A stretch of DNA of 64,000 nt from Flavobacteriales bacterium (GTDB lineage Bacteria > Bacteroidota > Bacteroidia > Flavobacteriales > BACL11), in assembly GCA_002712715.1 (NCBI GenBank), contig PAUF01000007.1:514134-578133 (forward strand), written 5' to 3'. The notes under the pieces were generated by a model. It did no database searches and was not told the DNA's origin. It worked only from the letters and a program-made list of their open reading frames with translations. This document shows, piece by piece, positions 404 through 61,555 of this stretch (its first letter is position 1; every line of letters begins with the position of its first letter). A program made the translations under genes and the position numbers.

Positions 404-404
404 G

Positions 405-2260: not shown

Positions 2261-2271
2261 AAATTAAAATC

Positions 2272-2799
2272 ATGGATATACAAAAACCTTTTAACTTACA
2301 AAAATGGATTGATGAAAATAGACATCATCTTAAACCTCCTGTTGGAAATAAAAATCTATATATTGAATCGGGAGATTATATAGTTATGATAGTTGCCGGA
2401 CCGAACGCAAGGAAAGACTATCACTATAACGAAACAGAAGAATTGTTTTATCAAATAGAGGGTGATATTATTGTTAAAACCCAACAAAATGGCAAATTAG
2501 TTGAGTATGAAATAAAAGAAGGAGACATGTTTCTTTTACCTGCAAAAATACCCCACTCTCCAGTGAGGTCAGCCGGATCAATAGGATTAGTGATTGAAAA
2601 GAAAAGAAATTCTAATCATAAAGATGGGCTTATGTGGTTTTCAGATACAGCTAATGAACTACTATATGAAGAATATTTTAATCTCACTAACATAGAAAAA
2701 GACTTTCTTCCTGTTTTTAAAAAGTTTTACTCTGATGAAAAATTAAGAACCTGCCCAAAAACTGGGGAAGTTATGGAAGTAGACAAAAGATATATTTAA
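2272..2799 (+). CDS. 3-hydroxyanthranilate 3,4-dioxygenase
   Basis: Cupin sequence blocks KPPVGNKNLY, VAGPNARKDYHYNETEELFYQIEGD and FLLPAKIPHSPVR match the conserved HAAO signature. Confidence 0.9.
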   Translation: MDIQKPFNLQKWIDENRHHLKPPVGNKNLYIESGDYIVMIVAGPNARKDYHYNETEELFYQIEGDIIVKTQQNGKLVEYEIKEGDMFLLPAKIPHSPVRSAGSIGLVIEKKRNSNHKDGLMWFSDTANELLYEEYFNLTNIEKDFLPVFKKFYSDEKLRTCPKTGEVMEVDKRYI

Positions 2800-2831
2800 A
2801 ATAAATCTGTTCTTAATATATATTTATAATT

Positions 2832-18313: not shown

Positions 18314-18335
18314 ATCCTAAAATTCATTTCAAAAA

Positions 18336-21158: not shown

Positions 21159-21162
21159 CAAC

Positions 21163-45479: not shown

Positions 45480-45487
45480 CAAAACTA
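45480..45487 (-). promoter_or_regulatory. -7 promoter box (TAGTTTTG on the minus strand) for gcvH-tonB
   Basis: The plus strand reads CAAAACTA, 43 nt upstream of ATG 45437. It overlaps the sprA stop. Confidence 0.35.
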
Positions 45488-48400
45488 ACCCGCTAAAGTA
45501 AATCGCAGACTGAAACCAGCGTTAGTTATCGCTCCTGGATAACTTGTAGAAATAAATGGATTCGTTATAACTTTATCATAAAACAACTTGAAATTTAACC
45601 TAGAACTAACAACATAATCTGTCGAAAATTTTATACTAATAGATTGTTGGCCCATCGTAATTTGCTCTACGTCCTCTATCACTTTTCTAATAACTGTTTT
45701 ATTATTTCTAATATTTAAATCTAATTTTATATCAAGGTCACTTGAAATTGTTTTCGAGGAACCCGCTGCTTTATATTTAAACTTCAAATCTTTAATCCTA
45801 TACCCAGTCCCAATCACATATTCACTTCCGTTAATTTCTGTAATCTGATTATTGGACATAGATAAATTTAAAGTTCTATTTTTCTTAATCTCTAATTTTG
45901 TCATTAAACTATTTTTCCAAGTTAAATCTAACTTAATCAAAGGACTAAATTGTTCATTAATCGTTACCTGCCCAATCTCGTATTTTGAAAAGAAGTTCCC
46001 AGTATTTTCATTAATATTGGATGACCAACCATCATTCTCAATATAATCTAAACTAGAAGTAAATGATCCAACAGAATAAGTGCTTCTGTAAGCGTGAGCT
46101 AAAGTAAATGTTTTAAAATATTTCTTAATGAATTTCAACCTCATTAATCCATCATAATTAACTCGCCAGTTTGGTAATGGTAATTTAGGCATGCTGCTTA
46201 AGGATGATGAAATTGGATTCTTTCCACCATATGCGGCTAAAAAGGCAGGTATTAAAACATCAGGTGAAGCTAATCCATATCCTTGAGGAAAACCAGTAGA
46301 ATCATATAATCCAGAAAAATTTGGATTCGCGGATGCAAGTCGCTTCGCTATCTCATTCCTATAATTTCTAAAATCCTGGAATGATTGTGAACTGAAATTT
46401 TCATTATCTCTCATAAAAGCAGTCTTCCATGAAATAAATGATATACTATAACTTCCATTCTGAATCGGACTTACTGAATTAAACATATTATCACTTTCAG
46501 ACCATCTAAAATATTCCTGCTGATTAAATGAATTTGTCTTATTAGCCGTAAGTTCGATTCTAAATTTCTTAATTGGCTCTACAGTACTTCTAATAATTAA
46601 ATTAGACGATGAAGTTTTGCTAAATAATGTGTTAATATTCTGATTTTGTGATAGCCATCCATTGGTAGATGCTTGATATCGAATATCTTTTTGACTTCCA
46701 AGCACAAAGGGTATACCAGGAGCCATCTCTGCCCAATTTTGACCAAAAAAATTCGACTCCGGCATAAATCCAGGAATAAAAGTACCTTCATTTCTTGTTA
46801 AATTTACTGAAATATTTTTTACAGACAAAAAAACATTCAATAATGATCTAGCTAATTTATACTGATCTTTTTTCTTATTTTCCTTGGGATTCTCTTCGGA
46901 TCTAATTCTTGAGGTTCTTCTGTTATTATTTCTCTTATTAGAAGAATTTAAAACTTTCTTAAAATAAGGCACTTTATTGTATAAAGTATTCATATTAATC
47001 TGTCCATTATGCTGAATATTATTTGAATTTTGAATTGTATTCCCAAAATCTTGCATTGATAAAGCTGCACTATTCCAATCATAATTTGCATTATATCGAG
47101 TTGTTAAACTTAAAAAATTCACTAGTGGGATTTTGCTAAAAGGCCATTGATAATTTAAAGCCAAATCATGATGATATAATGTTGGCCTTCCTAAATTCCA
47201 GAAATTTTTCCATATAGTATCTCTTTTCTCTTTAAATAAAGGGTCTTGCCTATCTATTCTACCAACTGGTTCATCAATACTTGATTGGTTTCTGACAGAA
47301 AAATCTAACTTTAAAGTTCTTGTAATATCATATTTAAGATCATATGATCTGTTCCAATTAAAATACTTATTGTAAGTAGGAGAAATTATCATATAGGAAT
47401 TATTAATATTTCTAAGTAACGTCTCATTATACATCCTTTCAATATCAGTACGATATGAAAAAGATTTTGGAATTGCATAAAAATTAATATCCTTGATTAA
47501 TCTAGCGTAAGGACCTTTTCCTATTTTTAATTTTGAAAATGGTTTAATATTTTTAGGCCTCGAACTATAATTATATGTAATCGCTCCCCTATAATTTTTT
47601 GTCCTATTATATTCAGTATTAATATTTCGAAAAAATGTTTCATTATTAGAATAAGAAATTGTAAAATTCTCTAAATCGTAAATTTTTGGCTTCTTTATCT
47701 CTTCACCTTTCTTTTGCACTTTAGTTTTTCTAATATTGGTTAGATTAATACTTTTTCTACTAACGTAATCTTGGGAAACAAATCTAAATGAATCTCTTTC
47801 TGCTTTATTTTCAAGAGAAGAGAGAGTTGTCTTAAATAAAATATCAGGATCTAATGGATTATACTGTGGGTTACTAATCTGTTCGGAAACCCCAATATAC
47901 AAAGGAATTCTAACTCCATAATCATCAGCAAAAAACTTCCCTAACTCCAAATTAGAAGACATGTCATATTGAAAATCATTAGATTTTTGTCTCTCATTTA
48001 CCTTTTTCTCAATTGAACCAAATCCAACAGTACTCATATTTCCTGCTAAAGTGACAGTTCCAAAATCTGCCATCTTAGTAGTTACTCTAGCATTGGCTGC
48101 CCATCCACCATATTCATCAAAATCAGCTAAACGCAATTCGTTTACCCAAATCTCTCCGCACTTTGCGTTCCCATCATCATCTGATGACGTAGATAGTTTT
48201 TTAGGATTCTTGACTCCTATCATTATTGTTTTTATTCTACTAAGATTAGGGTTGCCAACTACAGTAATTTTATCTCCATTAGATAGATAAGTAATAAAGG
48301 GAGTCGTTGCATCATTAGTGTTAAAATTTCTTTGCTGTTTAGCAAATTGAAATTGCTCAAATTCAATATCTATATTATTTTCAACTGGCCACACTTCGTT

Positions 48401-51400
48401 TCTAGAACTCTCACCATGATTAGTAACTTTTAAAGGCAACTCATATTCATAATAATTCGACGTAAAGTCAGTACCTAATCTAATAAAGCATGATAAATCA
48501 CCATCTAACAAATCATCCTCAGCTCCCTCAGCATGTACAAACATCTTAAGTCTTTTATATGTTCTTACATCAAGATCTGAAGTTTTGTATGCTGCTCGCG
48601 CGTCCCCATCATTTAAATTACATACTTTTAATACTAAAGATTGTTCATTATCTCTACGTAATGTAGTAGTAGTATTGTCAATATTTTGTTCTATACCTGG
48701 AGGCAGTACATAATTAATTGGTATTCTCTGTCCATTTTCCTCAATGTTAACAGACGTCACATCAAATAAAGTTTCATCTGTTTCATCATTTGGTATATAT
48801 TCTCCTGGCTCTTGCAGACTAAAATTATACCTTCTCCATTCACCTCTCACTAACTCCATAGTAGCGAATCGACATACTATAGGCTCATTAAAATCTGTCA
48901 ATATCATTCTCATAAATCTTATAGATTTAAAATCTTGAATACTTCCAACCACCTTTTCTGGATTATATACAGGAACTCTAAATTGATACCATTTAATTAT
49001 TCGATCATCACCGTTTTTTGTAGTAACATTAGTTTCTAATACATCAGAAATGTTAGGGTTACTTATATTTAATTCTGATGGAGATATTGATATTTTATAT
49101 TGAAAATAACTTTCTGACTCACCAAGAGTATTGTCACGATTAATGTCCTCAGAGTTTGGAATGGTAGTTGCAGATGTAGAATATGATTCATTAGATTGTT
49201 CAGTTGTTGCAGAATTTCCATCAAGTCCATTATATCTTTTATATCTTGTTAAAATTGATGTTTCCTGATTGTCAAAATCAGTACTTCTAAAATATAGGTA
49301 ATTATCACCAGATGGATCCTCAATCGCGTTTTGATATGCTAATGAGGAAACTCCTAAAGCAGGATTATTAACTATTTTTTGTATATAAATACTATCAAAA
49401 AATAATTTTTCATCTTCATCACTCAATCCATCAATCCCAACATCTTGATATTGTCTTGAGAGTGGGTCATTATCAAAAGCTTCTACTATTGAATAGTTTG
49501 TTGGGACTCGCCCCCATGCTGTAGTATCAACATCTATTATATTATCATCGATTGGTAATCCGTTTTCAAAACTTTTATATCCATCTTTTAATATGTCTTC
49601 TGAAACATTTCCTAAGTGAATATACATTTCTCCTCCCTCATGATTAATATTACCATCATCAGGATTAAACGGATCCATCATCCAAAACTCTATAAATTCT
49701 ATATTAGCTGTTTCAAAATCATTGGTTTCTATCTTTCTCATAATACCACCCCAATTTTTAGCAGGGTTCATCAATTCTCCAGTAAACGTCAATTGATCAA
49801 CATTATAATTATATGGACCTCTTTCATTTGGATAATATGCTAAGTCTAATATTGAAAGATTAGTAATTTGACTCCCATACTGAGGGTCCTTATTTGGAAA
49901 TACTTCCTTTTCTAATATTTCTCGACTATAATGATAAGACTGTTGAGCAATTTGATTGCCATTTGGTAAATCAATTAAATTATCAACTCCAGGAGGAGTC
50001 ACAGAGGAAGTTCTAAAAAAAACTGATGGATCTATTGTGTACCAAGAAATTAAACCTCTACGGAAGCCAGTAGATAAATCATTATTCAGATTCGAATTTT
50101 CAAATATTGAATTTTGTCCCTGAGGAATTGACGCAATATTCCATGATCTAACATTTTTAATATCAATAGAACTCCTACTAGCTTCAAAATCATCGATATA
50201 GGAGACACCTCCATCACCATTATCAATTCTCCTATGGTGTCCTGGTATTAATCTAGCTATCTCAGCGTTAGCTATTACTCTAGATTTTGTTTTAGTTTCA
50301 ATTAAAGGCAATTTGTCTATTAACTTAGTAATTAAAGGAGATTCTGATTGATAAGTCCCATCAATACCGAGAATTGTATTTGATATAGGTTCATCACCGG
50401 CATTTATTTTATTTACATATGGAGCCTCAGACAATCTTAACAATGTACCTCCAAGAATAAAGTCTTTATTTATTTTATAATCAGCGTGAAAACCCAGCAA
50501 ACTTTTATCCTGTATACCAAACATTGCATTATTCTCTAGTGAAATTTTAATTGGAATACCCGAATTAAGAATGCCTTCATCAATAATTGTAACTCTTCCC
50601 AACATATAATCAACCGTATAATGCTGATTTTCAATTAGCTTTTGAGACCCTGCTGAAACCGTAACAGACCCTTCCGGGACATTCATAGCATTTAAAGAAA
50701 TCTCTGACCCAGCTGAAGATTTATAAGATCCTTTAAGTCTAAACTTATTTAACTGAGGATATTGCCTAGCTATTGTAAGGGTTGAATCATAAAGATAATC
50801 ATAAACATATTTATTCGCGATATTATTATCATTGAATTTTTCTCTAAGATCTGATCCAAATGGCTCTAATGTTGGAAATATCACTCGACCATTTGAAGAT
50901 TTAGCGGTAACTCCTTCAATAAAATCAAATATTCCATCAGAAACATCATTCTGCTGCTGATTTAAATTATCAAGATTTAATAATTTGATTAATGGAACTC
51001 CATCAATATTTCCCTCAGGAATATAATTAGTCAATCCACCAGATACCTCAGTGTTTTCATAAATAACGTCTAATATAAACTCATTCGCACTCATCTGATA
51101 CGCTCCTAACGCATAAATATTCTTCATCATTAAATCCCAATTAATTAGTTTCGGAGAAAATGTGGTGCCTTTAATTAATTTGAGTATTAATGATTGTGGA
51201 GCGGTAGGACCATTATTAGTTAGCTCACCTACTTGGAAGGTTTCATTACCTATAGTATATTGAAATGCTACCGCAAGCACTTCATCATTGTTTAAAGCTT
51301 GATTCAATGATATATATCCAAGCTGAGGGTGTAAAGTATACTCAGATTCATTTAACTTCCTGGCTCTTTCTAACTTTTCATAGTCTTGTCCAGCAATGAA

Positions 51401-52612
51401 ATTAATAGAAGACAAAGGTCCTAACTCAGAATTTACTTGGCTTATATCTCTAATTCCTGGATATTGCGATAATAATTTTTGATACATATCATTAGCCTGA
51501 TCATTATCTGGAAATGGAGAAGTAAATGAAGTGGTAAAGTTATTGTTTTGAATATTGCCCTGAGTTTCTCCAAGATCCATAAACGACAAAATATTTCTAC
51601 TATTTTCTGTAACACCTGTTTTATTAGTGATCCACACCTCTACTCTAGTTATATTTATTGAAGAATTTATAAATGGTAAATTTTCTAAAGCTGAATTATA
51701 GTTATCTTTAAAATAGTGAGATAAGAAAAAATGCTTATTTGCTTCGTACTGATCTGCATAAATATCAAAATCAGTAGTTTGCGCTCCTCCTGTAACTTCA
51801 ACTTCAGATGTTGTAGACTTTTGCTGAGAAAGAATACCTGTAATAGTTGTTTTTCCAAACTGAAGTTTCGTTTTTAATCCAAATAAACTTTGACTTCCAG
51901 TAATTAAGGTTCCATTAAGAGGCAAACTAACATTTCCGATTTCTATTTTCTTTATAATCTCATCTTCAAATCCTGTATACTCTAATTTCATGTCATTTTC
52001 AAAATTAAAGGTAGCTTCGGTATTGAAATTAGTAGTTAATTTTAGCTTTTCTCCAATTTTACCAATTACATTCATCTGAATTTTTTCTTGAAAATCAAAA
52101 GACGCTGTCCTTCTTTGTTCAACAGTATAGTTTGGATTGTCTAAACGATTAACTCGAACTGAAAAAATTAATTCAGCAGAACCTTGGGGTCTAATATCTA
52201 CAGTATTACCACCAAAAACCTTATCAAATGCATCACTACCAATAAACAATTTAGGTCTTCCATAATTGCGATCAACTAAGCCTCTCCTTTGTTCTGATTG
52301 TGATTTCCAATAATTAGACTGTGAATTTGAAGTTTGATAATTTAGATATTCACTAAACGACATAACCGTTTTATTAAAAATATCTGTATTACCTATTCGG
52401 GAATAGATAATATATTTTCCAGTTTTAGGATTATATACAACCTCTTTCTGAAAATTATTTGGTAGTTCCATGTATAAGCCTCCATATTGAGTTGAACTAA
52501 ATGGAAACGCAAGATGGTTTTTTGTAGTATCATCAACAGTCATTGCATGCAATGAGCTACTTAAGAAAAAGATGCTTAAAAAAACAGGTATATAAAAAAT
52601 ATTGCTTTTCAA
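45485..52612 (-). CDS. sprA: T9SS translocon / cell-surface protein SprA
   Basis: The 2375-aa protein has a signal peptide and beta-rich composition to the C-terminus. Its size and its gcvH/ruvA neighbourhood are typical of Flavobacteriia sprA. Confidence 0.85.
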   Translation of the reverse strand: MKSNIFYIPVFLSIFFLSSSLHAMTVDDTTKNHLAFPFSSTQYGGLYMELPNNFQKEVVYNPKTGKYIIYSRIGNTDIFNKTVMSFSEYLNYQTSNSQSNYWKSQSEQRRGLVDRNYGRPKLFIGSDAFDKVFGGNTVDIRPQGSAELIFSVRVNRLDNPNYTVEQRRTASFDFQEKIQMNVIGKIGEKLKLTTNFNTEATFNFENDMKLEYTGFEDEIIKKIEIGNVSLPLNGTLITGSQSLFGLKTKLQFGKTTITGILSQQKSTTSEVEVTGGAQTTDFDIYADQYEANKHFFLSHYFKDNYNSALENLPFINSSINITRVEVWITNKTGVTENSRNILSFMDLGETQGNIQNNNFTTSFTSPFPDNDQANDMYQKLLSQYPGIRDISQVNSELGPLSSINFIAGQDYEKLERARKLNESEYTLHPQLGYISLNQALNNDEVLAVAFQYTIGNETFQVGELTNNGPTAPQSLILKLIKGTTFSPKLINWDLMMKNIYALGAYQMSANEFILDVIYENTEVSGGLTNYIPEGNIDGVPLIKLLNLDNLNQQQNDVSDGIFDFIEGVTAKSSNGRVIFPTLEPFGSDLREKFNDNNIANKYVYDYLYDSTLTIARQYPQLNKFRLKGSYKSSAGSEISLNAMNVPEGSVTVSAGSQKLIENQHYTVDYMLGRVTIIDEGILNSGIPIKISLENNAMFGIQDKSLLGFHADYKINKDFILGGTLLRLSEAPYVNKINAGDEPISNTILGIDGTYQSESPLITKLIDKLPLIETKTKSRVIANAEIARLIPGHHRRIDNGDGGVSYIDDFEASRSSIDIKNVRSWNIASIPQGQNSIFENSNLNNDLSTGFRRGLISWYTIDPSVFFRTSSVTPPGVDNLIDLPNGNQIAQQSYHYSREILEKEVFPNKDPQYGSQITNLSILDLAYYPNERGPYNYNVDQLTFTGELMNPAKNWGGIMRKIETNDFETANIEFIEFWMMDPFNPDDGNINHEGGEMYIHLGNVSEDILKDGYKSFENGLPIDDNIIDVDTTAWGRVPTNYSIVEAFDNDPLSRQYQDVGIDGLSDEDEKLFFDSIYIQKIVNNPALGVSSLAYQNAIEDPSGDNYLYFRSTDFDNQETSILTRYKRYNGLDGNSATTEQSNESYSTSATTIPNSEDINRDNTLGESESYFQYKISISPSELNISNPNISDVLETNVTTKNGDDRIIKWYQFRVPVYNPEKVVGSIQDFKSIRFMRMILTDFNEPIVCRFATMELVRGEWRRYNFSLQEPGEYIPNDETDETLFDVTSVNIEENGQRIPINYVLPPGIEQNIDNTTTTLRRDNEQSLVLKVCNLNDGDARAAYKTSDLDVRTYKRLKMFVHAEGAEDDLLDGDLSCFIRLGTDFTSNYYEYELPLKVTNHGESSRNEVWPVENNIDIEFEQFQFAKQQRNFNTNDATTPFITYLSNGDKITVVGNPNLSRIKTIMIGVKNPKKLSTSSDDDGNAKCGEIWVNELRLADFDEYGGWAANARVTTKMADFGTVTLAGNMSTVGFGSIEKKVNERQKSNDFQYDMSSNLELGKFFADDYGVRIPLYIGVSEQISNPQYNPLDPDILFKTTLSSLENKAERDSFRFVSQDYVSRKSINLTNIRKTKVQKKGEEIKKPKIYDLENFTISYSNNETFFRNINTEYNRTKNYRGAITYNYSSRPKNIKPFSKLKIGKGPYARLIKDINFYAIPKSFSYRTDIERMYNETLLRNINNSYMIISPTYNKYFNWNRSYDLKYDITRTLKLDFSVRNQSSIDEPVGRIDRQDPLFKEKRDTIWKNFWNLGRPTLYHHDLALNYQWPFSKIPLVNFLSLTTRYNANYDWNSAALSMQDFGNTIQNSNNIQHNGQINMNTLYNKVPYFKKVLNSSNKRNNNRRTSRIRSEENPKENKKKDQYKLARSLLNVFLSVKNISVNLTRNEGTFIPGFMPESNFFGQNWAEMAPGIPFVLGSQKDIRYQASTNGWLSQNQNINTLFSKTSSSNLIIRSTVEPIKKFRIELTANKTNSFNQQEYFRWSESDNMFNSVSPIQNGSYSISFISWKTAFMRDNENFSSQSFQDFRNYRNEIAKRLASANPNFSGLYDSTGFPQGYGLASPDVLIPAFLAAYGGKNPISSSLSSMPKLPLPNWRVNYDGLMRLKFIKKYFKTFTLAHAYRSTYSVGSFTSSLDYIENDGWSSNINENTGNFFSKYEIGQVTINEQFSPLIKLDLTWKNSLMTKLEIKKNRTLNLSMSNNQITEINGSEYVIGTGYRIKDLKFKYKAAGSSKTISSDLDIKLDLNIRNNKTVIRKVIEDVEQITMGQQSISIKFSTDYVVSSRLNFKLFYDKVITNPFISTSYPGAITNAGFSLRFTLAG

Positions 52613-52624
52613 CTTATTTATTTT

Positions 52625-53200
52625 CTACCCTAAAGATTTTTTTACTAAATCCTCAACTGAAAGAGATTGATCTGAAGTCTTCAGAACTTTATCAATTTTA
52701 TTTTCAGCCATCTTTTTAGTAAATCCTAGAGCAAGTAATGCTGATAACGCTTCATCTTTAATTGTATTGTCTTGACTAAACAATAAATCTGATTTTTCAA
52801 TACCCTTACCTACTTTATCTTTTAAATCAATAATAATTCTTTGGGCAGTTTTACCTCCAATTCCCTTAATGTTTTGTATCGCACCAACATCAGCGCTTAT
52901 GATATGATGAACAATTTCATCAGCACTATATGTAGAGAGTATTACTCTAGCAGTACTGGGACCTACTCCAGAAACTGAGATTAAATGTCTAAATAATCCT
53001 CTTTCATCTTCAGAACAAAATCCATAAAGTGTATGAGAATCTTCCTTAACAGCTAAATGAGTAAATAGAAAACAATTTTCTGAATTTATAGAAGAGTATG
53101 TCTGAAGTGATATGTTTATCTTATATCCCACTCCATTACAGTCTATTACTACATAGGTTGGGGTTTTCTCTACTAATTTTCCTTGTATATGAGCTATCAT
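52625..53200 (-). CDS. ruvA: Holliday junction DNA helicase subunit RuvA
   Basis: It has an OB-fold N-terminus and the HhH blocks VSGVGPSTARVIL and IKGIGGKTAQRI. Confidence 0.9.
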   Translation of the reverse strand: MIAHIQGKLVEKTPTYVVIDCNGVGYKINISLQTYSSINSENCFLFTHLAVKEDSHTLYGFCSEDERGLFRHLISVSGVGPSTARVILSTYSADEIVHHIISADVGAIQNIKGIGGKTAQRIIIDLKDKVGKGIEKSDLLFSQDNTIKDEALSALLALGFTKKMAENKIDKVLKTSDQSLSVEDLVKKSLG

Positions 53201-53298: not shown

Positions 53299-54003
53299 TC
53301 ACTTGTTAATAATTAACTTCTTAATATCAAATAACTCTTCTCCTTCAAATATATTTACAAAATAAACTCCATTTGTAAAGTTATCTAAATTTACAATTGT
53401 TTCTATATCTTTCTGAATAACAATAGTTTTTAAACAGTTTCCTAAAATGTCTGATATTTGTATCTTTATATTAGACCCATGATAAGAAAAAACCTTAGTA
53501 AAATCGGTTGCTGGATTTGGATAAAAAGTAATTATATCCTGTTTTTCTTCTAACATACTAGTAGTATTCTCATTAGCGTGATAAGTTACAGTAACACAAG
53601 ACCTATCAGTAGGATTTTCTGATGGATAAAAACAATACTCTACAACTCCTGTTCCGGGAGCTGCGGGTCCTGGAATAAATGGATGGAAATATCCAGTAAA
53701 TCCATTTGTTTGTTCACCTGGAGACAAGGTATCCATTTTTGTAGAAATCATTGTTCCAGATCCATAACAAGTACCTCCCCAACAAAAATCATTACTCGCT
53801 GTAGAAGGTTCTGAAATTACTGTTTTTTCGCATAAAACGGTAACTGTATTAGAACTCACATTTTTTACAATAGCATGAGCTTCAATACCAAAATCATCAA
53901 TAGATCCGTATACTAAAGTATCACCCGTAACCATTAAAGACTGAGAGAAAACAGTATTGACTAAAAAAAGACTACTAACTAGAAGAAATAATTTTGATTT
54001 CAT
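53299..54003 (-). CDS. Hypothetical secreted protein with a T9SS C-terminal sorting domain
   Basis: It has a signal peptide, and the CTD begins ITFYPNPATDFTKV. Confidence 0.7.
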   Translation of the reverse strand: MKSKLFLLVSSLFLVNTVFSQSLMVTGDTLVYGSIDDFGIEAHAIVKNVSSNTVTVLCEKTVISEPSTASNDFCWGGTCYGSGTMISTKMDTLSPGEQTNGFTGYFHPFIPGPAAPGTGVVEYCFYPSENPTDRSCVTVTYHANENTTSMLEEKQDIITFYPNPATDFTKVFSYHGSNIKIQISDILGNCLKTIVIQKDIETIVNLDNFTNGVYFVNIFEGEELFDIKKLIINK

Positions 54004-54094: not shown

Positions 54095-54102
54095 TATATT
54101 TG
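54095..54102 (+). promoter_or_regulatory. -7 promoter box TATATTTG
   Basis: It is an exact TAnnTTTG match 38 nt upstream of ATG 54140. Confidence 0.45.
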
Positions 54103-54139: not shown

Positions 54140-56011
54140 ATGAAAAAACTTATACCCTTAATGATATTAGCTATATTTTCTTTAATTGCTAATGCACAAA
54201 CATTTGTCAGTACATCTCCAGAAAATAAAAATGTTATTTTAGAAGAATTCACTGGAATCTATTGCGTATGGTGTCCAGCTGGACACTTAATTGGTCAACA
54301 GCTACATGACGCTAATCCTAATGATGTCTTTCTCATTAACATACATACTGGTGGATTCGCAACTCCAGGGGCTGGCGACCCAGACTTCAGAGTTGATCCA
54401 ATAGGTGCAAACATAGCTAGTCAATCAAATTTATCAGGATATCCTGCCGGTACAGTAAATCGTCATCTATTTTCAATGACACAAAATGGTGGCACTGCTA
54501 TGAGTAGATCGGATTGGTCTGCTGCTAGCAATCAAATATTAGCTCAATCATCTCCAGTCAATGTTGGGGCTCAAGCAAGTATTGATATGGCTACCAATGT
54601 TTTAACCGTAGATGTAGAAGTTTATTATACTGGAAGCCAAACAGTTAATAGTAACATGCTAAATGTAGCGGTTCTACAAAATAACGTTGAAGGACCTCAA
54701 ACTGGTGGAGCTAGTAATAATCCTGGATCTATGAATTCCAATGGGACTTATAATCACAATCACATGTTAAGACATATGATGACAGGGCAGTGGGGAGAAC
54801 AAATTTCTAACATTAGTCCTGGGTCTTTATATTCTAATACTTTTACATGGACAATACCTCCTAGTGTTAATGGAGTTATTCTTGACCCAACAAATATTTC
54901 AATAATTGCTTTTGTCGCAGAAGGTCAACAGGAAATATTAAGTGGAACTGAAGCTACTCCAAATGTTATATTCGCTAATTCATTTGACGCATACTGTATG
55001 AGCGCAAATGCTAATGACGCAATTTGTGGATCAAGTACAGATATTAATGTTACTTTTAGAAACTATGGAAATCAAAACTTGACCTCTCTAGACATTAACT
55101 ATTCAATTAATGGAGGATCAAATAGTACATATCCATGGACAGGGAATTTAGCTCCTGCAGGAACTGAAACGATCATTATACCTGGTGTAACATTTACTCC
55201 TCAAGCAAATAACAATATTAGCGTTTCAACCTCTAACCCTAATGGAAATACAGATCAAAATAGTTCTAATGACAATACATCCACTTCATTCTCACAATAT
55301 GACGCTGCCGGTCAAGTACAGTCAGGGGTTACTGTTGGAAATATTACTATTAATGTTACAACAGATCAATATGGTAGTTCTGAAAATTCATGGGAATTAA
55401 TGGATGATAATGGAAATATTATAGCTTCTGTAGCTCAAGGAAGTATGTCCTCAAGCGCTCCTCAAGCTCCTGTAAATGCTAATATCCAAGCTAACACATG
55501 TTACTCATTTAAATTCTATGATTCATATGGTGATGGTATATGCTGCTCATATGGTCAAGGATCTTACACTGTTACAGACGCTTCAGGAACTGTTATTGCG
55601 GGTGGAGGAAGTAATACAAGTTTTTCAAATTTCAATGAAAGAGCTGATTTCTTTAAAACAGGATCATCTACCCCTGCGGCTTCATGGAATTGTGATAATG
55701 GTAATTGTATTGATCCAGGCGATGGAAGCGGAATATATGGTTCATATACTCAATGTATGTCTGCTTGTAATTCTACATCTATCAATGATGATTCATTTAA
55801 AGGAATCTCTATTTTCCCAAATCCTGCTAAAAATATAATTAATATAGAAGGAACGTTTGAAACTATACAGTTGTATGACATTTCTGGAAAATTATTAGTA
55901 AATACTAATTACAAGACTATAAACATTCAAAATTTATCGGAAGGAATATACCTGCTACATATAGTAACAACTGATGAATTGATTGTTGAGAAAGTAACTA
56001 TTTCTAAATAG
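54140..56011 (+). CDS. Multidomain T9SS-secreted protein with an Omp28-like CxxC N-domain
   Basis: It has a signal peptide and the block EEFTGIYCVWCPAGH. It also has an Ig/CARDB-like middle, the Cys-rich module YGDGICCSYGQGSY, and a CTD beginning ISIFPNPAKNIINI. Confidence 0.7.
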   Translation: MKKLIPLMILAIFSLIANAQTFVSTSPENKNVILEEFTGIYCVWCPAGHLIGQQLHDANPNDVFLINIHTGGFATPGAGDPDFRVDPIGANIASQSNLSGYPAGTVNRHLFSMTQNGGTAMSRSDWSAASNQILAQSSPVNVGAQASIDMATNVLTVDVEVYYTGSQTVNSNMLNVAVLQNNVEGPQTGGASNNPGSMNSNGTYNHNHMLRHMMTGQWGEQISNISPGSLYSNTFTWTIPPSVNGVILDPTNISIIAFVAEGQQEILSGTEATPNVIFANSFDAYCMSANANDAICGSSTDINVTFRNYGNQNLTSLDINYSINGGSNSTYPWTGNLAPAGTETIIIPGVTFTPQANNNISVSTSNPNGNTDQNSSNDNTSTSFSQYDAAGQVQSGVTVGNITINVTTDQYGSSENSWELMDDNGNIIASVAQGSMSSSAPQAPVNANIQANTCYSFKFYDSYGDGICCSYGQGSYTVTDASGTVIAGGGSNTSFSNFNERADFFKTGSSTPAASWNCDNGNCIDPGDGSGIYGSYTQCMSACNSTSINDDSFKGISIFPNPAKNIINIEGTFETIQLYDISGKLLVNTNYKTINIQNLSEGIYLLHIVTTDELIVEKVTISK

Positions 56012-56028
56012 CACTTCGTTTATATTCT

Positions 56029-56058
56029 AAAACCTCATCTTTTCAGATGAGGTTTTTT
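56029..56058 (+). terminator. Rho-independent terminator
   Basis: AACCTCATCT (56031-56040) pairs with AGATGAGGTT (56045-56054) around a TTTC loop, followed by a T-run. Confidence 0.8.
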
Positions 56059-56090
56059 AGAATAAATATACTTGTATTACGTTAAAGCAA

Positions 56091-56098
56091 TATCTTTG
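56091..56098 (+). promoter_or_regulatory. -7 promoter box TATCTTTG
   Basis: It is an exact TAnnTTTG match 21 nt upstream of ATG 56119. Confidence 0.5.
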
Positions 56099-56118
56099 TA
56101 TAACTAAAAAATATAACT

Positions 56119-56610
56119 ATGAAAAGGTATCTATTATTTACAATTCTCTTTTTTTTCTTGTCTCAATATATTTTTTCCCAAGAAAAATTACCAAATATTT
56201 CCGTTAAAAACTTAAACGGTAAGAAAGTTAATATACAAGATATCAATAATGAAGGAAGCCCTATTGTTTTAAATTTCTGGGCTACTTGGTGTAAGCCATG
56301 CAAATTAGAGCTCAATACAATTGCTGAAGACTATGAAGATTGGCAAGATGAAACCGGAGTAAAAATAATTGCTGTTTCAATTGATGACAGTAGATCTATG
56401 TCAAAAGTTGCTCCCTATATAAACTCTGTTGGATGGGATTATGAAATCTATCTTGATCCAAATAGAGATTTAGCCAGATCTTTAGGTGTTTCAACAGTAC
56501 CACATACATTCCTACTGAATGAAAAAAAAGAAATTGTTTGGGAACATAGAGGATATATCCCTGGAGATGAACATAAATTATTAGAAAAAATAGAATCTTT
56601 AGTCAAATAA
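56119..56610 (+). CDS. Exported TlpA/ResA-like thiol-disulfide oxidoreductase (thioredoxin fold)
   Basis: It has a signal peptide and the active site WATWCKPC. Confidence 0.85.
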   Translation: MKRYLLFTILFFFLSQYIFSQEKLPNISVKNLNGKKVNIQDINNEGSPIVLNFWATWCKPCKLELNTIAEDYEDWQDETGVKIIAVSIDDSRSMSKVAPYINSVGWDYEIYLDPNRDLARSLGVSTVPHTFLLNEKKEIVWEHRGYIPGDEHKLLEKIESLVK

Positions 56611-56613
56611 AAA

Positions 56614-58266
56614 ATGAAGTTCAAAAACTTTTTATACATTATTTTTTTGACAACATACTACAGTTTTTCTCAAGAAAATAATAGTAGCATTAATGGTGAC
56701 TTCATTAATAACTTTCAAAGCTATAATGATGATCCATTAATTGGTGCCATTGCACCGGAAGAAAAAGTACTCAATAATGCATACTTAAATGTAATCTATA
56801 CAAAAAACAATTTCTCCATTGGCCTAAGATACGAGAGCTATCTTAATGCTCTGATGGACTTTGATTCAGAGTTTCAAGGTAATGGCATCCCATATCGATA
56901 TATTACATATACCGCTGATGGATTAGAGGTTACAGCTGGAAATTACTATGAACAGTTTGGGAGTGGACTTATACTCAGAACTTACGAAGATAAAGGACTA
57001 GGAATTGATAACGCAATGGATGGCATTAAACTTCGATTAAATCCAATATCTGGTGTTTATTTGAAATCTTTTATTGGCAGAAGTAGAACCTATTTTAATT
57101 ATTCTGAAGGCATTATTAGGGGAGTAGACATGGAAATGGACATCAACGAAATGTTAAGGATTGAAAATAACGGATCATATATATTTGGATCTAGTATAGT
57201 AAGTAGATTTCAAGAAGATAATAATCCTAAGTTTAATCTCCCACAAAATGTTGCTGCGTTTTCAAATAGATTAAATATCATGCATAGTGGATTTAATTAC
57301 TATATTGAATACGCCTATAAATTTAATGATCCAGTTGGTTCATTCTCTCTAGAAAGTAACAATTATGCTCCTGGCAAGGCTTTATTAAGTAATCTTAGTT
57401 ATTCCAAAAAAGGAATTGGTATAAATATTGAAAGCCATTGGATAGATCACATGGAATTCCGATCAGAAAGAGCTAAAGAAAAGGAATTTATTATAAATTA
57501 CATTCCGACAATATCTAAACAACATACCTATACACTTTTAGCTTTATATCCAGCTTCAACACAAATGGAAGGAGAATTTGGTGTACAAGCTGATATTTTC
57601 TATAAATTAAAAAAAGGGTCTTTACTTGGAGGAAAATACGGAACTAAAATCAATATTAATTTTTCTAAAATTAATGCAATTAAAAATGGAACTTCATTCC
57701 TAAATGATAGCCTAAATATAAGATCGCCTTTTCTAAGCTATGATAATGATAAATTATATTTTACTGATTTTAACATAGAGATTAATAAGAAGTTAGATAA
57801 AAAGACAAAAATTAATTTTATAGTTTCCAATCAAAAATACAATAAAGATATATTAGAAGGAAAGACACCGGGAGAATATGGAACAATACAATCAACAATT
57901 GGAGTTGTAGATATAAGCTATAAAATTAAGAAAGGTCATACTATTAGAATTGAAAGTCAAGCACTACGTTCTAAACCTGATCCCAATGCGACAAAAAAAG
58001 GCGACGGTCACTGGGTAATGTTATTATCAGAATACACGATCTCTCCTAATTGGTTTTTCTCTATTCAAGATATGTACAATTTTGGAAATTATGATCAAAC
58101 TCAAAGATTACACTACATAAACGCTACATTTGGATACATAATAGGATCTAATAGATTTGAAATTGGTTATGGTAAAAAAAGAGCAGGCATTTTCTGTGTT
58201 GGAGGAGTTTGTAAAGAAGTTCCCGCTTCTAATGGTTTAAATATTAATATCTCTTCAAGTTTTTAA
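56614..58266 (+). CDS. Predicted outer-membrane beta-barrel protein (DUF6029-like)
   Basis: It has a signal peptide, an alternating amphipathic pattern and a C-terminal ...NISSSF. Confidence 0.55.
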   Translation: MKFKNFLYIIFLTTYYSFSQENNSSINGDFINNFQSYNDDPLIGAIAPEEKVLNNAYLNVIYTKNNFSIGLRYESYLNALMDFDSEFQGNGIPYRYITYTADGLEVTAGNYYEQFGSGLILRTYEDKGLGIDNAMDGIKLRLNPISGVYLKSFIGRSRTYFNYSEGIIRGVDMEMDINEMLRIENNGSYIFGSSIVSRFQEDNNPKFNLPQNVAAFSNRLNIMHSGFNYYIEYAYKFNDPVGSFSLESNNYAPGKALLSNLSYSKKGIGINIESHWIDHMEFRSERAKEKEFIINYIPTISKQHTYTLLALYPASTQMEGEFGVQADIFYKLKKGSLLGGKYGTKININFSKINAIKNGTSFLNDSLNIRSPFLSYDNDKLYFTDFNIEINKKLDKKTKINFIVSNQKYNKDILEGKTPGEYGTIQSTIGVVDISYKIKKGHTIRIESQALRSKPDPNATKKGDGHWVMLLSEYTISPNWFFSIQDMYNFGNYDQTQRLHYINATFGYIIGSNRFEIGYGKKRAGIFCVGGVCKEVPASNGLNINISSSF

Positions 58267-59199
58267 ATGATGAAAAATACATTTTCTTTAATTGCTGTAT
58301 TTAGTATAACAATACTTATAATATTCCCTAAATGTGATATTGTTGAATCTCCATATATGACAAGTAATAACAATACAATTAACGATACTAATTCTTTCAT
58401 AAAGAAAGTCCTTATTGAAGATTTTACAGGTCATCGATGTCAAAACTGCCCTGAGGCAGCTGAAGAGATAAAATCTCTCCAATCATTTTATGAAGGACAA
58501 ATTATTGCTTTAGCAATACATCCTAATACTACATTCTCGATTCCAAGCCCAATTGGTTCATCTTCATATACATATGATTTTAGAACAGAATGGGGAAATG
58601 AAATAGATAATATTTTCAACATTTCTATGGATGGATTACCTGCGGGAATGGTAAGTAGGAGTGGATTTAATACTGAACACCGATTAGGGAAGGATGAATG
58701 GTCTAATATTGTTCTACAGGAATTATCTAAGGATCCATACTTTGGTATAACACTAAATTCAAACTATTCAAACAATATCGCAAATATCTCTATAGAAATT
58801 GAATCACTATCAAATCTTTCTGATGAGTATAATGTTGTAGTTTGCCTTGCTGAGAATAACATTGTCAACTGGCAAAAAAATACTAATACTGATTTAGAAG
58901 ATTATCAACATAACCATGTGCTTAGATCAATTATTAATTCAACATTAGGAGAAAGTATTGGCAGTAGCTTTCAAATTGGTCAAAAGTGGAATAAAGACTA
59001 TATAATAAACATTAATGATTTAGAATTATACAATAATAATTATTCAATAAATAATTTACTTGCAGGAAATGGAAATTGCGGTGGATGGATAGCTGAAAAT
59101 ATGGAAATCATCGTATATGTGTATAATACTTCTAACTACGCGATTGAACAAGTAGAATCTATTCCTCTAATAACAGAAACTATTCTCCCTAATAAATAA
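58267..59199 (+). CDS. Omp28-like CxxC protein, probable lipoprotein
   Basis: The N-terminus is ...ILIIFPKCD. The block EDFTGHRCQNCPEA is paralogous to the N-domain of the 54140 ORF. Confidence 0.6.
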   Translation: MMKNTFSLIAVFSITILIIFPKCDIVESPYMTSNNNTINDTNSFIKKVLIEDFTGHRCQNCPEAAEEIKSLQSFYEGQIIALAIHPNTTFSIPSPIGSSSYTYDFRTEWGNEIDNIFNISMDGLPAGMVSRSGFNTEHRLGKDEWSNIVLQELSKDPYFGITLNSNYSNNIANISIEIESLSNLSDEYNVVVCLAENNIVNWQKNTNTDLEDYQHNHVLRSIINSTLGESIGSSFQIGQKWNKDYIININDLELYNNNYSINNLLAGNGNCGGWIAENMEIIVYVYNTSNYAIEQVESIPLITETILPNK

Positions 59200-59206
59200 T
59201 TATATA

Positions 59207-60160
59207 ATGAAAAAAATAATTTTAATTCCATTATTGATTTTTTGTAATTACAGTATTGCACAAACCAATAGCGCTTCAGTAAATGAAATAGATGCAAGTA
59301 ATTTTCTTGAAGCGTACTTTTCTCCTTTAACCAAAAGTTTAGAATCCGGACTAACTAGTGGTTGGTACAATACGGGAAAACCTCATAAATTAGGTGGCTT
59401 CGACATTACTGCAACTATTAATACAATTTCAGTTCCTAATGAACAATTAACTTTTGATCCAAATAGTATACCAAATTTTAATTCAAATAGTAGTGCGACC
59501 TCAACAATTATTGGATCTGGTAATAGTACTGATATTCAATATCAAGGCAATACTTTTTCTATGCCTTCTCAAACATCCTCGATTAATAAAATGTATATTC
59601 CAATGATGAATGCAAGTATTGGGTTAGCTAAAAAAACTGATTTTGGATTCAGATATATACCAGAATATACAAATAAGTTTGGTAATTCATTTAAAGGGTC
59701 AATTTCTTTATGGGGAGCTAGCATAAAACACGATCTATTGCAATGGATTCCTTTCGGAAACAGCGTCCCAGCTGATTTGTCTTTTCATATAGGACATACA
59801 TCATTAAAGACTAACTTTGATGTTAATATTTCTGATGTCAAACAAGTGGTTGATTTGAATATTCGATCTACATCACTTAGCTTAATTGCATCAAAGAAAT
59901 TTCTAATGATTACTGCTTATGGATCACTGGGATACAATACTTCATCTACAATTTTCAATAGTACTACATCGTTTCAAGTTGGAACAGGATCAAATACATT
60001 AGACTTTAATGTGCCGTTGGATATTGATTTCGCGAAAAATAATTACCTAAAAGGAAATTTAGGAATACGTGCAAAACTAGCTTTTTTCACTCTTCATTTT
60101 GAAAGAACCTTTGCTAACTACCCGATATCAACTTTAGGAATAGGTTTTAGTTTTAGATAA
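59207..60160 (+). CDS. Hypothetical outer-membrane protein
   Basis: It has a signal peptide ending SIAQ and a beta-rich sequence. Confidence 0.5.
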   Translation: MKKIILIPLLIFCNYSIAQTNSASVNEIDASNFLEAYFSPLTKSLESGLTSGWYNTGKPHKLGGFDITATINTISVPNEQLTFDPNSIPNFNSNSSATSTIIGSGNSTDIQYQGNTFSMPSQTSSINKMYIPMMNASIGLAKKTDFGFRYIPEYTNKFGNSFKGSISLWGASIKHDLLQWIPFGNSVPADLSFHIGHTSLKTNFDVNISDVKQVVDLNIRSTSLSLIASKKFLMITAYGSLGYNTSSTIFNSTTSFQVGTGSNTLDFNVPLDIDFAKNNYLKGNLGIRAKLAFFTLHFERTFANYPISTLGIGFSFR

Positions 60161-60161
60161 G

Positions 60162-60758
60162 ATGAAACAATACTGCTCTATATTTCTTGTACTATTTTGC
60201 ATTTCATCTTTTTCCCAAAGCTTTAATGGAGGTTTAATTTCAGGAATTGCAACATCGCAGGTGTCTGGCGATAATTTAGGTGGATACAATAAAGCTGGAT
60301 TTTTATTTGGCATATACACACAATATCCTTTATCTGAAATTAGCAATTTACAATTAGAAATTAATTATATTGAAAAGGGAAGTAACAATCCCAAAATGAT
60401 TGAAAACAATATCCCTGACATTAGCTTATCATACATTGAAATTCCATTAATTTTCAATTACAATCAAAATGAAAAAATGAATTTTGAATTTGGGATTCAA
60501 TCTGCTCTATTAATATCCTCAAGCGACAATGACATTATTGGCCCTATTAACCCAATTAATTCAATTGAATTCAAAAAATATGACACTGGTCTTCTCTTAG
60601 GGATGAGTTATCTTCTTAATCAAAAAATTGCATTAAACACGCGGATTAGCAATTCTATTTTACCAATGAGAAAGCACGCTGAAGGAAATACATACCTCTT
60701 TAACAAAGGACAGTACAATACTGTTCTAAGTTTTTCACTAAAATTTATAATTATATGA
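60162..60758 (+). CDS. Small outer-membrane beta-barrel (porin/PorT-like family)
   Basis: It has a signal peptide and is about 198 aa long with 8-strand-barrel-like periodicity. Confidence 0.5.
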   Translation: MKQYCSIFLVLFCISSFSQSFNGGLISGIATSQVSGDNLGGYNKAGFLFGIYTQYPLSEISNLQLEINYIEKGSNNPKMIENNIPDISLSYIEIPLIFNYNQNEKMNFEFGIQSALLISSSDNDIIGPINPINSIEFKKYDTGLLLGMSYLLNQKIALNTRISNSILPMRKHAEGNTYLFNKGQYNTVLSFSLKFIII

Positions 60759-61327
60759 AAAATAAACATAAAATAGTACTAGGGATAACGGGAGCTAGTG
60801 GATCAATCTATGCAAAAGTTCTACTAGATAAACTAATTAATTTAAATGATCAAATAGAAGAAGTTGGAATTATTATGTCTGAAAACGCAAAATTTGTTTG
60901 GAGGACAGAGCTTAATAATTCAGAATTTGAAAAAGTACCATTCAAATTCTACAATAAAGATGACTTCAAGGCTCCATTTGCAAGTGGCTCTGCGAATTAT
61001 AATACAATGATTATCTGTCCTTGTTCTATGGGAACTCTTGGAAGAATTTCCACTGGGATTTCTAATGATCTAATTACTAGATCAGCTGATGTTATTTTAA
61101 AAGAAAGACGACAGCTTATTTTAGTAACAAGAGAAACTCCACTAAGCCTAATTCATATTAACAATATGAAAAAAATAACCGAATCAGGAGGAATTATTTG
61201 TCCAGCTTCTCCCTCTTTTTATAGTAATCCTAATACATTTAATCAATTAGCTGCTACGGTAATAGATAGGGTAATTAATCTTTCTGGCTTAACAAATAAT
61301 TCATATAGTTGGGGAGAAACACAATAA
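60755..61327 (+). CDS. ubiX: Flavin prenyltransferase UbiX
   Basis: It has the blocks ITGASGSIYA and CPCSMGTLGRISTG and is about 190 aa long. Confidence 0.88.
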   Translation: MKNKHKIVLGITGASGSIYAKVLLDKLINLNDQIEEVGIIMSENAKFVWRTELNNSEFEKVPFKFYNKDDFKAPFASGSANYNTMIICPCSMGTLGRISTGISNDLITRSADVILKERRQLILVTRETPLSLIHINNMKKITESGGIICPASPSFYSNPNTFNQLAATVIDRVINLSGLTNNSYSWGETQ

Positions 61328-61369: not shown

Positions 61370-61555
61370 ATGTTAGAATTCAGTAAAAAAGTACTCTCAA
61401 AAGTTAGTTTCGATAAAATACTTTTTCAAAAAGAATTAGAAAAAAGTGTGAGATGGGTAAAAAAGAGAGAGATAAATCATCTAAAAGTATGGGCCTTAAC
61501 ATCTTTTTCTCAATATAAAAGCCTAATTATTGAAGTATTTGATGGGATAAACTAA
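61370..61555 (+). CDS. Hypothetical small protein (may be spurious)
   Basis: This 61-aa ORF lies in the only gap between ubiX and ruvB and has no recognisable motif. Confidence 0.25.

Follow-up and report, generated by a model that had tools for sequence, protein, structure and literature searches.

A 64,000-nucleotide stretch of a Flavobacteriales genome (GenBank assembly GCA_002712715.1, contig PAUF01000007.1, positions 514,134 to 578,133 of the forward strand; hereafter the window) carries six consecutive plus-strand genes, P1 to P6, and we here characterize the gene set at their center, which encodes a TlpA/ResA-type reductase, a DUF6029 outer-membrane barrel, and a lipoprotein related to HBP35 and Omp28. 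An original prediction, made from the sequence alone, had described these genes as an envelope cluster with two CxxC proteins and a thioredoxin, and its open reading frame (ORF) coordinates, motifs, and spacing were verified: successive genes lie 107, 3, 0, 7, and 1 nt apart, with the P4 start codon immediately adjoining the P3 stop codon. Among ORFs of at least 110 amino acids (aa) in the window, CxxC is confined to P1, P2, and P4. Each part is of a known kind, namely a TlpA-like reductase, an HBP35/Omp28-like thioredoxin, and an outer-membrane barrel, and their combination with an invariant cysteine pair in the barrel is not described in the literature that we searched.

P2 (56119..56610, +; 163 aa) is identified by Pfam, NCBIfam, and PDB comparisons as an exported, soluble thiol-disulfide reductase of the TlpA/ResA type. 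Its N-terminus is a signal peptide without a cysteine, its active site reads W-C58-K-P-C61 (56290..56301, +; within WATWCKPC), and it matches the Pfam families AhpC-TSA, Redoxin, and Thioredoxin_8, with Redoxin and AhpC-TSA above threshold. The best NCBIfam matches were ResA, StoA, DsbE, and TlpA, all far below their equivalog cut-offs (e.g., ResA, 91.7 vs. 170; TlpA, 45.5 vs. 230), and the nearest solved relatives were 2m72 (E 2e-41), ResA (E 2e-20), and CcmG/DsbE. With its exported thioredoxin fold and W-C-x-x-C site, P2 belongs to the TlpA/ResA/CcmG class at large.

P3 (56614..58266, +; 550 aa, ending in ...SSSF) matches the outer-membrane beta-barrel family DUF6029 (PF19494) over its full length and above threshold (575.5 bits, E 1e-172, profile positions 7-538 of 538). 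Its AlphaFold2 (AF2) model, built with a 54-sequence alignment, has a mean predicted local distance difference test score (pLDDT) of 81.7 and shows 24 long strands from residue 24 onward and no N-terminal plug domain. Foldseek returned only generic large barrels (FimD/PapC, LptD, TonB-dependent transporters, MtrB, and AlgE; template modeling score, TM, 0.25-0.45), and DUF6029 is therefore a family of its own. The sole two cysteines of P3 lie in C528-V-G-G-V-C533 (58195..58212, +), a hairpin between strands 23 and 24 (525-529/532-536) that places C528 and C533 across a G-G turn in the model. The pattern C-x-G-G-x-C was found in all 141 complete P3 homologues out of 141, and is invariant in our alignments A1, A3, and A4. 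Barrel termini and tight turns are, as a rule, periplasmic. In the P3 model, the 2-residue turns all fall at even-to-odd strand junctions (2-3, 4-5, 10-11, 12-13, 18-19, and 22-23), while long, lower-confidence loops fall at odd-to-even junctions, so that the 23-24 connection should face outward and, by strand parity, the cysteine hairpin would be the last outward-facing loop.

P4 (58267..59199, +; 310 aa) combines a thioredoxin-like N-domain with a beta-sandwich. It has a lipoprotein signal, with the predicted lipidation cysteine at C23 (58333..58335, +) followed by a conserved D-[KIV]-[IV]-E-x-P-Y; C23 is invariant in alignments A2 and A5, homologue lipoboxes are typical (e.g., ...SCD and ...ACD), and most family representatives continue from the lipobox cysteine with D-[KIV]-[IV]-[ED]-x-P-[YF]. 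The CxxC motif, C58-Q-N-C61-P62 (58438..58449, +), lies inside IEDFTGHRCQNCPEA and is kept by the P4 orthologues of 80 out of 80 syntenic loci, one apparent exception being an N-masked codon. A search of a library of 1.84 billion representatives recovered 3,583 clusters (50% identity) of the P4 family at E ≤1e-3, and [ED][FY]TG[HFQ]xCxNCP was present in 144 of 148 (∼97%) top representatives of such clusters. Invariant in A5 are the lipidation cysteine, both active-site cysteines, the proline that follows them, one histidine, a loop proline, and W/Q/R/G positions; a cis-Pro-type GLPxGM loop is conserved in A2 and A5. In the AF2 model of P4 (mean pLDDT 76), strand 48-51 precedes C58/C61, helix 61-74 follows, and a confident beta-sandwich comes after, and this modeled strand-CxxC-helix order is the thioredoxin arrangement, in line with the thioredoxin-type site that had been predicted. 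Foldseek gave the entire HBP35 structure 5y1a as the best PDB fold match of the model (E 1.4e-9, TM 0.57, 282 columns), followed by the Omp28 fragment 2r2c. P4 thus resembles HBP35 at the level of predicted structure, with a thioredoxin-like domain, a strand-helix CxxC, and a beta-sandwich; being a lipoprotein, it has no type IX secretion system (T9SS) sorting domain.

Family assignment of P4 and P1 requires some care. Both pass the Pfam threshold for Omp28 (PF11551; 34.9 bits), P4 with 86.2 bits (E 3e-24) and P1 with 75.4 bits (residues 93-268, E 6e-21). However, both fall below the 150-bit cut-off of the NCBIfam model NF033782, lipoprot_Omp28 (135.4 bits for P4 and 96.1 bits for P1), and are therefore Omp28-related rather than members by the curators' rule. 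The match of lipoprot_Omp28 to P1 spans residues 16-268, and hence includes the CxxC region. P4 shares the architecture of the Omp28 lipoprotein (PF11551, NF033782, 2r2c), with a family profile match over the sandwich (E 6e-34), and the 2r2c crystal structure is without the N-terminal half. We found no functional study of Omp28 itself in the literature, and no relevant paper on Omp28 together with TlpA or DUF6588. P1 and P4 matched the NCBIfam model "Omp28-related selenoprotein" only weakly (33-38 bits vs. a cut-off of 200); across 1.9 Mb of related loci, the motif never occurred with selenocysteine (TGA), and no literature on Omp28 and selenoproteins was found. Further local matches (E 0.01-0.08) to DUF1223/Atu2684 (2axo) and the archaeal thioredoxins 1nho and 1fo5 share E-x-FT-x-x-x-C-x-x-CP with the family, but are weak, cover the active-site region only, and lead to proteins whose functions are equally unassigned. 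The "Omp28-related" protein 00502 of Paraprevotella clara, required for trypsin recruitment, was modeled by its authors as WD40 plus Ig domains, which is not thioredoxin-like, and was not used. Tandem Omp28-like gene pairs follow DUF6029 in some lineages (e.g., L086, 8659-10764), and fused doublets of ∼520 aa with two CxxC motifs occur among the representatives (e.g., P0244, P0248, P0249, and P0311).

The gene upstream of this core, P1 (54140..56011, +; 623 aa; Pfam Omp28 and Por_Secre_tail), encodes a T9SS-secreted multidomain protein composed, in order, of a signal peptide, an HBP35/Omp28-like thioredoxin domain plus beta-sandwich, a variable cysteine-containing middle, and a type A sorting domain (Por_Secre_tail, residues 558-621, E 2e-12). 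Instead of a lipidation cysteine, it has a plain signal peptide and the T9SS C-terminal sorting domain. Its CxxC, C42-V-W-C45 (residues 42-45; 54263..54274, +), is part of LEEFTGIYCVWCPAGH and is kept by orthologues as LEEFTGxxCxxCPDGH, and its sequence matches in the PDB were Omp28 (2r2c) and the CxxC region of HBP35 (5y1a). The P1 N-module and P4 are indeed paralogues, as had been proposed (24% identity over 223 residues, E 3e-9), and have in common xE[ED]FTGxxCxxCP, a histidine past the next strand, the loop G-[LY]-P-x-G-[MT]-V-x-R, and the motif Y-x-H-N-H-x-L-R.

In 63 of the 97 related loci with room for it, the plus-strand T9SS gene just 5′ of TlpA likewise has a CxxC. These 63 comprise 34 of the Omp28/HBP35 type, with LEEFTGxxCxxCPDGH as in P1 or EEFT[QN]ASC[GP]PCA, 26 classical WC[GP]PC thioredoxins or redoxins with F[IL]DFSAVWC[GP]PCWSYH, and 3 others. 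All those checked against Pfam end in Por_Secre_tail, and their middles differ (Cleaved_Adhesin, MAM-like, CARDB, or Ig). To judge by these motifs, the trait shared by the non-orthologous secreted partners is a predicted secreted thioredoxin-type active site, which favors a redox role over a structural disulfide or metal site. The original prediction had allowed for either a redox or a metal site in the CxxC proteins; the redox part is supported by the HBP35 match and by these WCxPC replacements in the secreted partner, and the metal or structural part is disfavored. A metal site built from CxxC and histidines was rejected as such, given that H56 is swapped for F, Q, or Y in homologues and that only H85 and H215 are near-invariant among P4 histidines (A5); it was retained solely within the heme/metal alternative discussed below.

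Conservation of gene order binds the three core genes together. In 80 loci from different species-level genomes, fetched with a DUF6029 alignment (44-66% identity), gene order was read by profile searches of six-frame ORFs with profiles of the window's own gene families, and nearly all showed TlpA, DUF6029, and Omp28-like genes in this order (TlpA in 71, the lipoprotein in 77). The reverse test started from the lipoprotein, using the best 80 of at least 589 metagenome matches, from varied samples, retrieved with alignment A5 (30-44% mutual identity): DUF6029 was directly 5′ of the lipoprotein gene in 49 of the 54 loci whose upstream sequence reached 1.9 kb or more, and of these 49, 41 had room for a further gene, which was TlpA, directly 5′ of DUF6029, in 36. 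Close relatives retain sprA-ruvA upstream and ruvB downstream. Among the metagenome loci, ruvB was found in only 10 of 80, ubiX in 21, P6 in 24, and P5 in 1, and the upstream neighbor was often a type I phosphomannose isomerase, a family 1 glycosyltransferase (GT1), or a TPR/LuxR protein. The core was also kept despite other flanks in L067-L082, and more distant DUF6029 genes on Mb-scale contigs again stood in the order TlpA-DUF6029-Omp28(-Omp28)-OMP_b-brl_2. Carriers include many uncultured marine, freshwater, and soil Bacteroidota. One metagenome locus (L123, 3525-8979, contig Ga0208460_10000064) encodes TlpA, DUF6029, the Omp28-like protein, and DsbD on one strand with short gaps; this DsbD is complete (DsbD_N, DsbD_TM, and thioredoxin domain) and lies 42 nt 3′ of the lipoprotein gene, and it is the only DsbD found beside the module in 168 related loci. 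Synteny is therefore strong and independent of flanks in genome and metagenome loci alike, and given that the core persists with its flanks replaced and with either partner as the starting point, TlpA, DUF6029, and the Omp28-like protein form a unit. We consider it likely that this unit is a dedicated thiol-redox module.

Transcription signals set P1 somewhat apart. A terminator-like stem-loop followed by a U-run (56023..56064, +) stands directly past the P1 stop codon, inside the 107-nt spacer, and folds as RNA with -23.5 kcal/mol (z = -5.3; no sequence among 200 shuffles was as stable). The motif TAnnTTTG, of the -7 type, is a mark of Bacteroidetes promoters; pattern matches to it occur at 54095..54102 (+), 38 nt before the P1 start codon, and at 56091..56098 (+), 21 nt before the P2 ATG. 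Given this hairpin and the motif before P2, P1 probably has a separate transcript, while P2 to P6 likely form one operon, as far as such signals can be read from sequence. A sigma-70 promoter scan was uninformative (44 sites vs. 51 expected), and the hairpin, overlooked by the scanning tool, was found by RNA folding.

The remaining genes of the cluster appear less tightly bound to it. P5 (59207..60160, +; 317 aa) is an exported DUF6588 protein (Pfam E 4e-69; signal peptide), present in 56 of 80 genome loci vs. 1 of 80 metagenome loci, and is a clade-specific accessory gene. P6 (60162..60758, +; 198 aa) is a small outer-membrane protein of the OMP_b-brl_2 family (PF13568, E 6e-12), present in 62 of 80 genome and 24 of 80 metagenome loci; PDB sequence searches with P5 and P6 gave no meaningful relative. 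The three outer-membrane barrels originally predicted have thus fared differently, with P3 upheld by its AF2 model, P6 by family membership alone, and P5 showing only a DUF match and a signal peptide. The UbiX flavin prenyltransferase gene that follows (60755..61327, +; TIGR00421, 180 bits, above cut-off) overlaps P6 by 4 nt and is probably co-transcribed with it, with no evident functional tie. It adjoins P6 in many loci and is missing from many others; P6 and ubiX are frequent passengers of the core, and ubiX was rejected as a functional member as it is lost wherever flanks differ. Past ubiX, a 61-aa ORF (61370-61555, +) overlaps the ruvB stop codon with its end; its sequence is conserved in L001, ORFs of the same size (61-62 aa) follow ubiX in L003 and L085-L088, and it has no Pfam hit on record.

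On the other side of P1, and divergent from it, a small gene (53299..54003, -; 234 aa) encodes T9SS cargo with Por_Secre_tail at residues 161-232. A homologue occupies the same position in 49 of 80 genome loci and in L084-L088, even in lineages without a P1-type gene, and most homologues have F-C-W-G/A-x-x-C-Y, a C-x4-C that resembles C-V-G-G-V-C of the barrel. This protein might be acted on by the redox module or work alongside it, an association that we regard as tentative. The cluster has the T9SS translocon gene sprA and ruvA as its immediate upstream neighbors (45485-53200, -), and this adjacency is preserved in many Flavobacteriales, often with a malic enzyme gene and a SIR2 gene between. 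Genes for protein-O-mannosyltransferase-like proteins (TMEM260-like, PMT_2) and for type I phosphomannose isomerase stand repeatedly beside the module in loci that are unrelated (L075, L078, L080, and L082, upstream on the minus strand; L116, 6841-8556; L161, 7760-9880; L125-L165, upstream of TlpA); such neighbors may reflect a lineage-specific neighborhood or hint at glycosylated module proteins. The hairpin after P1, the ubiX overlap, the Cys-x4-Cys of the barrel, the divergent T9SS cargo, and HBP35 had all been overlooked in the original prediction.

HBP35 of Porphyromonas gingivalis (5y1a) is the closest characterized relative. The claim that such proteins have no described function was wrong, since HBP35, whose architecture is the same, has been described as a surface thioredoxin that is anchored by the T9SS and binds hemin. 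Like P4, it joins an xFTxxxCxxCP thioredoxin-like N-domain to a Y-x-H-x-H beta-sandwich; like P1, it is T9SS cargo with a C-terminal sorting domain, and P1 and the family profile both match it in sequence. The profile matches its CxxC region at E 4.5e-6, and HBP35 YLHQH aligns with family YEHNH: Y213-Q-H215-N-H217 in the P4 beta-sandwich (58903..58917, +) corresponds to Y-L-H204-Q-H206, and Y213, H215, H217, and R220 of P4 are invariant in A2. However, HBP35 and P4 share only 14% identity in the fold alignment, P4 is a lipoprotein rather than T9SS cargo, and the literature found connects hbp35 with neither TlpA nor DUF6029 and names neither an electron source nor partners for HBP35. HBP35 is displayed on the P. 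gingivalis surface by the T9SS and reduces insulin faster than Escherichia coli thioredoxin, while its C48S/C51S variant is inactive (PMC2907840). Its hemin binding resides in M135-P344, with candidate ligands that include H204 and H206, and does not depend on its cysteines; under hemin limitation, hbp35 mutants show poor growth (PMC2907840). HBP35 also complemented an E. coli dsbA mutant, and, according to the authors, no physiological role of its thioredoxin domain is known (PMC2907840). By analogy, P1 and P4 are candidates for the reductase activity that has been demonstrated for HBP35 alone, and the YxHxH alignment makes them candidates for hemin binding as well. Taken together, a redox role is favored over a structural or metal role for the CxxC proteins.

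We propose, tentatively and without claiming it as the probable outcome, that the module is anchored in the outer membrane and delivers reducing equivalents to its outer face. P2 would act as the soluble periplasmic reductase and would draw its electrons from a DsbD/CcdA protein of the inner membrane whose gene lies elsewhere in the genome. As originally reported, no CcdA/DsbD-like polytopic ORF was seen in the 64-kb window with a crude hydropathy and motif/cysteine screen, an absence that is not informative. P3 and the CxxC lipoprotein P4 would form an outer-membrane pair, with the P4 CxxC held reduced by P2, such that electrons would run from DsbD/CcdA to P2 and on to P4. The acceptors on the outer face would be the Cys-x4-Cys hairpin of the barrel and T9SS-exported CxxC proteins such as P1. 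On surface proteins or external substrates, these would break disulfides or hold thiols in the reduced state, with P1-type proteins as terminal surface reductases. That the trio itself constitutes a thiol-disulfide electron conduit across the outer membrane, with passage through or along the barrel by means of its invariant Cys-x-G-G-x-Cys hairpin, is a bolder claim, and we think it rather unlikely.

Known systems supply partial models for such an arrangement. The pathways from DsbD/CcdA to TlpA, ResA, or CcmG resemble the module in the fold, signal peptide, and WCxPC of P2, and L123 encodes DsbD in line. However, the known clients of this family are periplasmic, such as apocytochromes c, Sco and CoxB, and spore-cortex proteins, whereas the conserved partners here are an outer-membrane barrel and a lipoprotein. 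MtrCAB (6r2q) has a similar parts list, in which a large barrel serves as the sheath and the redox proteins are one in the periplasm and one surface lipoprotein, but it conducts through heme wires rather than cysteine pairs; CxxCH motifs, as in multiheme proteins of the MtrCAB type, were absent from P1-P6, and with MtrB at TM 0.42 the likeness is one of analogy, not homology. In LptD-LptE, as in P3/P4, a large barrel and a lipoprotein are encoded alongside and the barrel has conserved cysteines, and LptD is on the Foldseek list of P3; P3 is, however, without the LptD N-terminal domain, P4 is unrelated to LptE, and nothing points to a position of P4 within the P3 barrel as in LptD-LptE.

Several observations weigh against delivery of reducing power to the cell surface, and some against the module as such. 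Contact among P2, P3, and P4 and an outward orientation of P4 are putative. The acidic residues past the lipidated cysteine of P4 (C-D-K-I-E-E-P-Y) loosely resemble published Bacteroidetes lipoprotein export signals (K-(D/E)2, SDDDD, and SDDFE), but do not amount to a canonical one. The cysteine hairpin of P3 is weakly modeled with regard to lumen or surface placement (pLDDT <50 at residues 529-532), and as a plain i,i+5 hairpin disulfide it may be purely structural. About one-third of the loci have no secreted CxxC gene, and P1 itself is probably on its own transcript. Given that HBP35 complements a dsbA mutant, the direction of thiol exchange in vivo is not fixed. As for gene order, it is partly inherited, since sprA-ruvA through ruvB is syntenic in Flavobacteriales, and the metagenome set, as the best 80 of at least 589 matches, is biased to one subfamily. 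L075, L078, L080, and L082 have only the barrel-lipoprotein pair with no TlpA nearby, the pair adjoining a TMEM260-like O-mannosyltransferase, a methyltransferase, and a UbiA-family gene, and L068 and L070 have the barrel without the lipoprotein.

The alternative that survives best keeps all thiol chemistry in the periplasm, where an inward-facing P4 and P2 would reduce or isomerize disulfides of proteins in transit, namely the DUF6029 barrel, T9SS cargo (P1 and the divergent C-x4-C protein), and other outer-membrane proteins; no electrons would cross the outer membrane, and P1 would be a client instead of a surface acceptor. The ResA/CcmG/TlpA type of P2 suits this explanation, as that family acts on specific periplasmic clients, and so does the conserved C-x4-C in both the barrel and the divergent cargo; T9SS cargo folds in the periplasm prior to export, the locus adjoins sprA in many genomes, and the noncanonical N-terminus of P4 is also in its favor. 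However, adjacent cysteines across a hairpin require no isomerase, the thioredoxin-type site in the secreted partner and its swap for WCGPC domains are left unexplained, and the closest characterized relative, HBP35, is surface-displayed. We judge quality control confined to the periplasm to be unlikely.

Capture and uptake of heme or metal is an explanation that we doubt more strongly. Here, P4 and P1 would bind the ligand on the cell surface through the conserved Y-x-H-x-H sandwich, the plug-less DUF6029 barrel would be the entry channel, and the CxxC/TlpA chemistry would reduce or release the ligand or protect the site. A wide plug-less barrel with a cognate lipoprotein recalls, by analogy from general knowledge, the barrel-lipoprotein uptake pairs of Bacteroidetes, and the P4 thioredoxin domain has an invariant histidine, H85, after its second strand. 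HBP35 binds hemin and its mutants grow poorly under hemin limitation (PMC2907840), and its histidine motif aligns with the invariant YxHxH of P4, P1, and Omp28. Yet hemin binding by HBP35 does not depend on cysteines, while cysteines and TlpA, with DsbD in one locus, are the conserved theme here. Neither a TonB box, a plug domain, nor inner-membrane transporter genes are linked to the module, and many secreted partners are plain thioredoxins or redoxins without the histidine-bearing sandwich.

A third explanation, that DUF6029 is a polysaccharide-export porin of the Wzi/AlgE kind and the thioredoxin-like genes are unrelated neighbors, is very improbable. Its basis is the only literature that we found on DUF6029, an HHpred observation tying some Wzi-barrel-like matches near outer-membrane polysaccharide export (OPX) genes to this family (PMC9603273). 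AlgE is within the Foldseek list of P3, and mannose-6-phosphate isomerase, GT1, and protein-O-mannosyltransferase-like genes stand beside the module in some loci. However, the P3 model has ∼24 strands as opposed to the 16-18 of the barrels in that study, a range given for Wzi/AlgE/PgaA porins near OPX genes, and the Foldseek matches are generic (TM ≤0.45; AlgE, 0.32-0.39). No OPX/Wza, polysaccharide co-polymerase (PCP), or Wzx/Wzy gene adjoined the module in 168 loci, as covered by profiles of the window's own families and Pfam searches of ∼30 selected neighboring ORFs, and the flank-independent linkage to TlpA and the CxxC lipoprotein would go unexplained. That unrelated envelope genes lie side by side by chance or by inheritance alone, a view to which the synteny of the entire sprA-ruvA to ruvB region in many Flavobacteriales lends some color, is extremely improbable given that the three-gene core survives flank replacement, that its genes abut or overlap, that CxxC in the window is confined to P1, P2, and P4, and that the linkage was found from either partner as the start.

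Elsewhere in the window, we noted a compact kynurenine/3-hydroxyanthranilate pathway cluster (378-7240, +) encoding an aldehyde dehydrogenase, a 3-hydroxyanthranilate dioxygenase (3-HAO), an amidohydrolase of the ACMSD type, a cyclase/kynurenine-formamidase-like protein, kynureninase, and a KMO-like FAD monooxygenase. A second set, of genes in a row (17402-23325, +), encodes a lamin-tail-domain protein, a TonB-dependent receptor with CarboxypepD_reg and Plug domains, and a PLD-like protein with two PLDc_2 domains, and may scavenge extracellular nucleic acid or phospholipid. Between ∼27400 and 44300 on the minus strand lies a long surface-polysaccharide locus, read from its sequence only, whose ORFs include several with sulfotransferase-like N-termini (GAAKSGTTS), polytopic flippase/polymerase-like proteins, and an adenylylsulfate-kinase-like protein.

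To our knowledge, no known system brings thiol-reducing power to or across the Gram-negative outer membrane, as the envelope reductive pathways known to us end in the periplasm, and we know of no explanation for the electron source of the surface thioredoxin HBP35. The module described here provides a testable parts list for recharging surface thioredoxins, comprising the reductase, the barrel and its invariant cysteine pair, CxxC proteins of two sorts (a lipoprotein and secreted ones), and DsbD in one locus, and it would give DUF6029 and the large Omp28-related family (∼3,600 clusters at 50% identity) their first functional context. If thiol chemistry were confined to the periplasm, the module would still equip an outer-membrane barrel with dedicated redox partners. 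If, on the other hand, electrons did cross the outer membrane by way of the trio, DsbD in the inner membrane and the heme-based MtrCAB would have a counterpart built on cysteines, and aerobic Bacteroidota would gain enzymatic reducing power outside the cell, via a surface lipoprotein and then T9SS-displayed thioredoxins.

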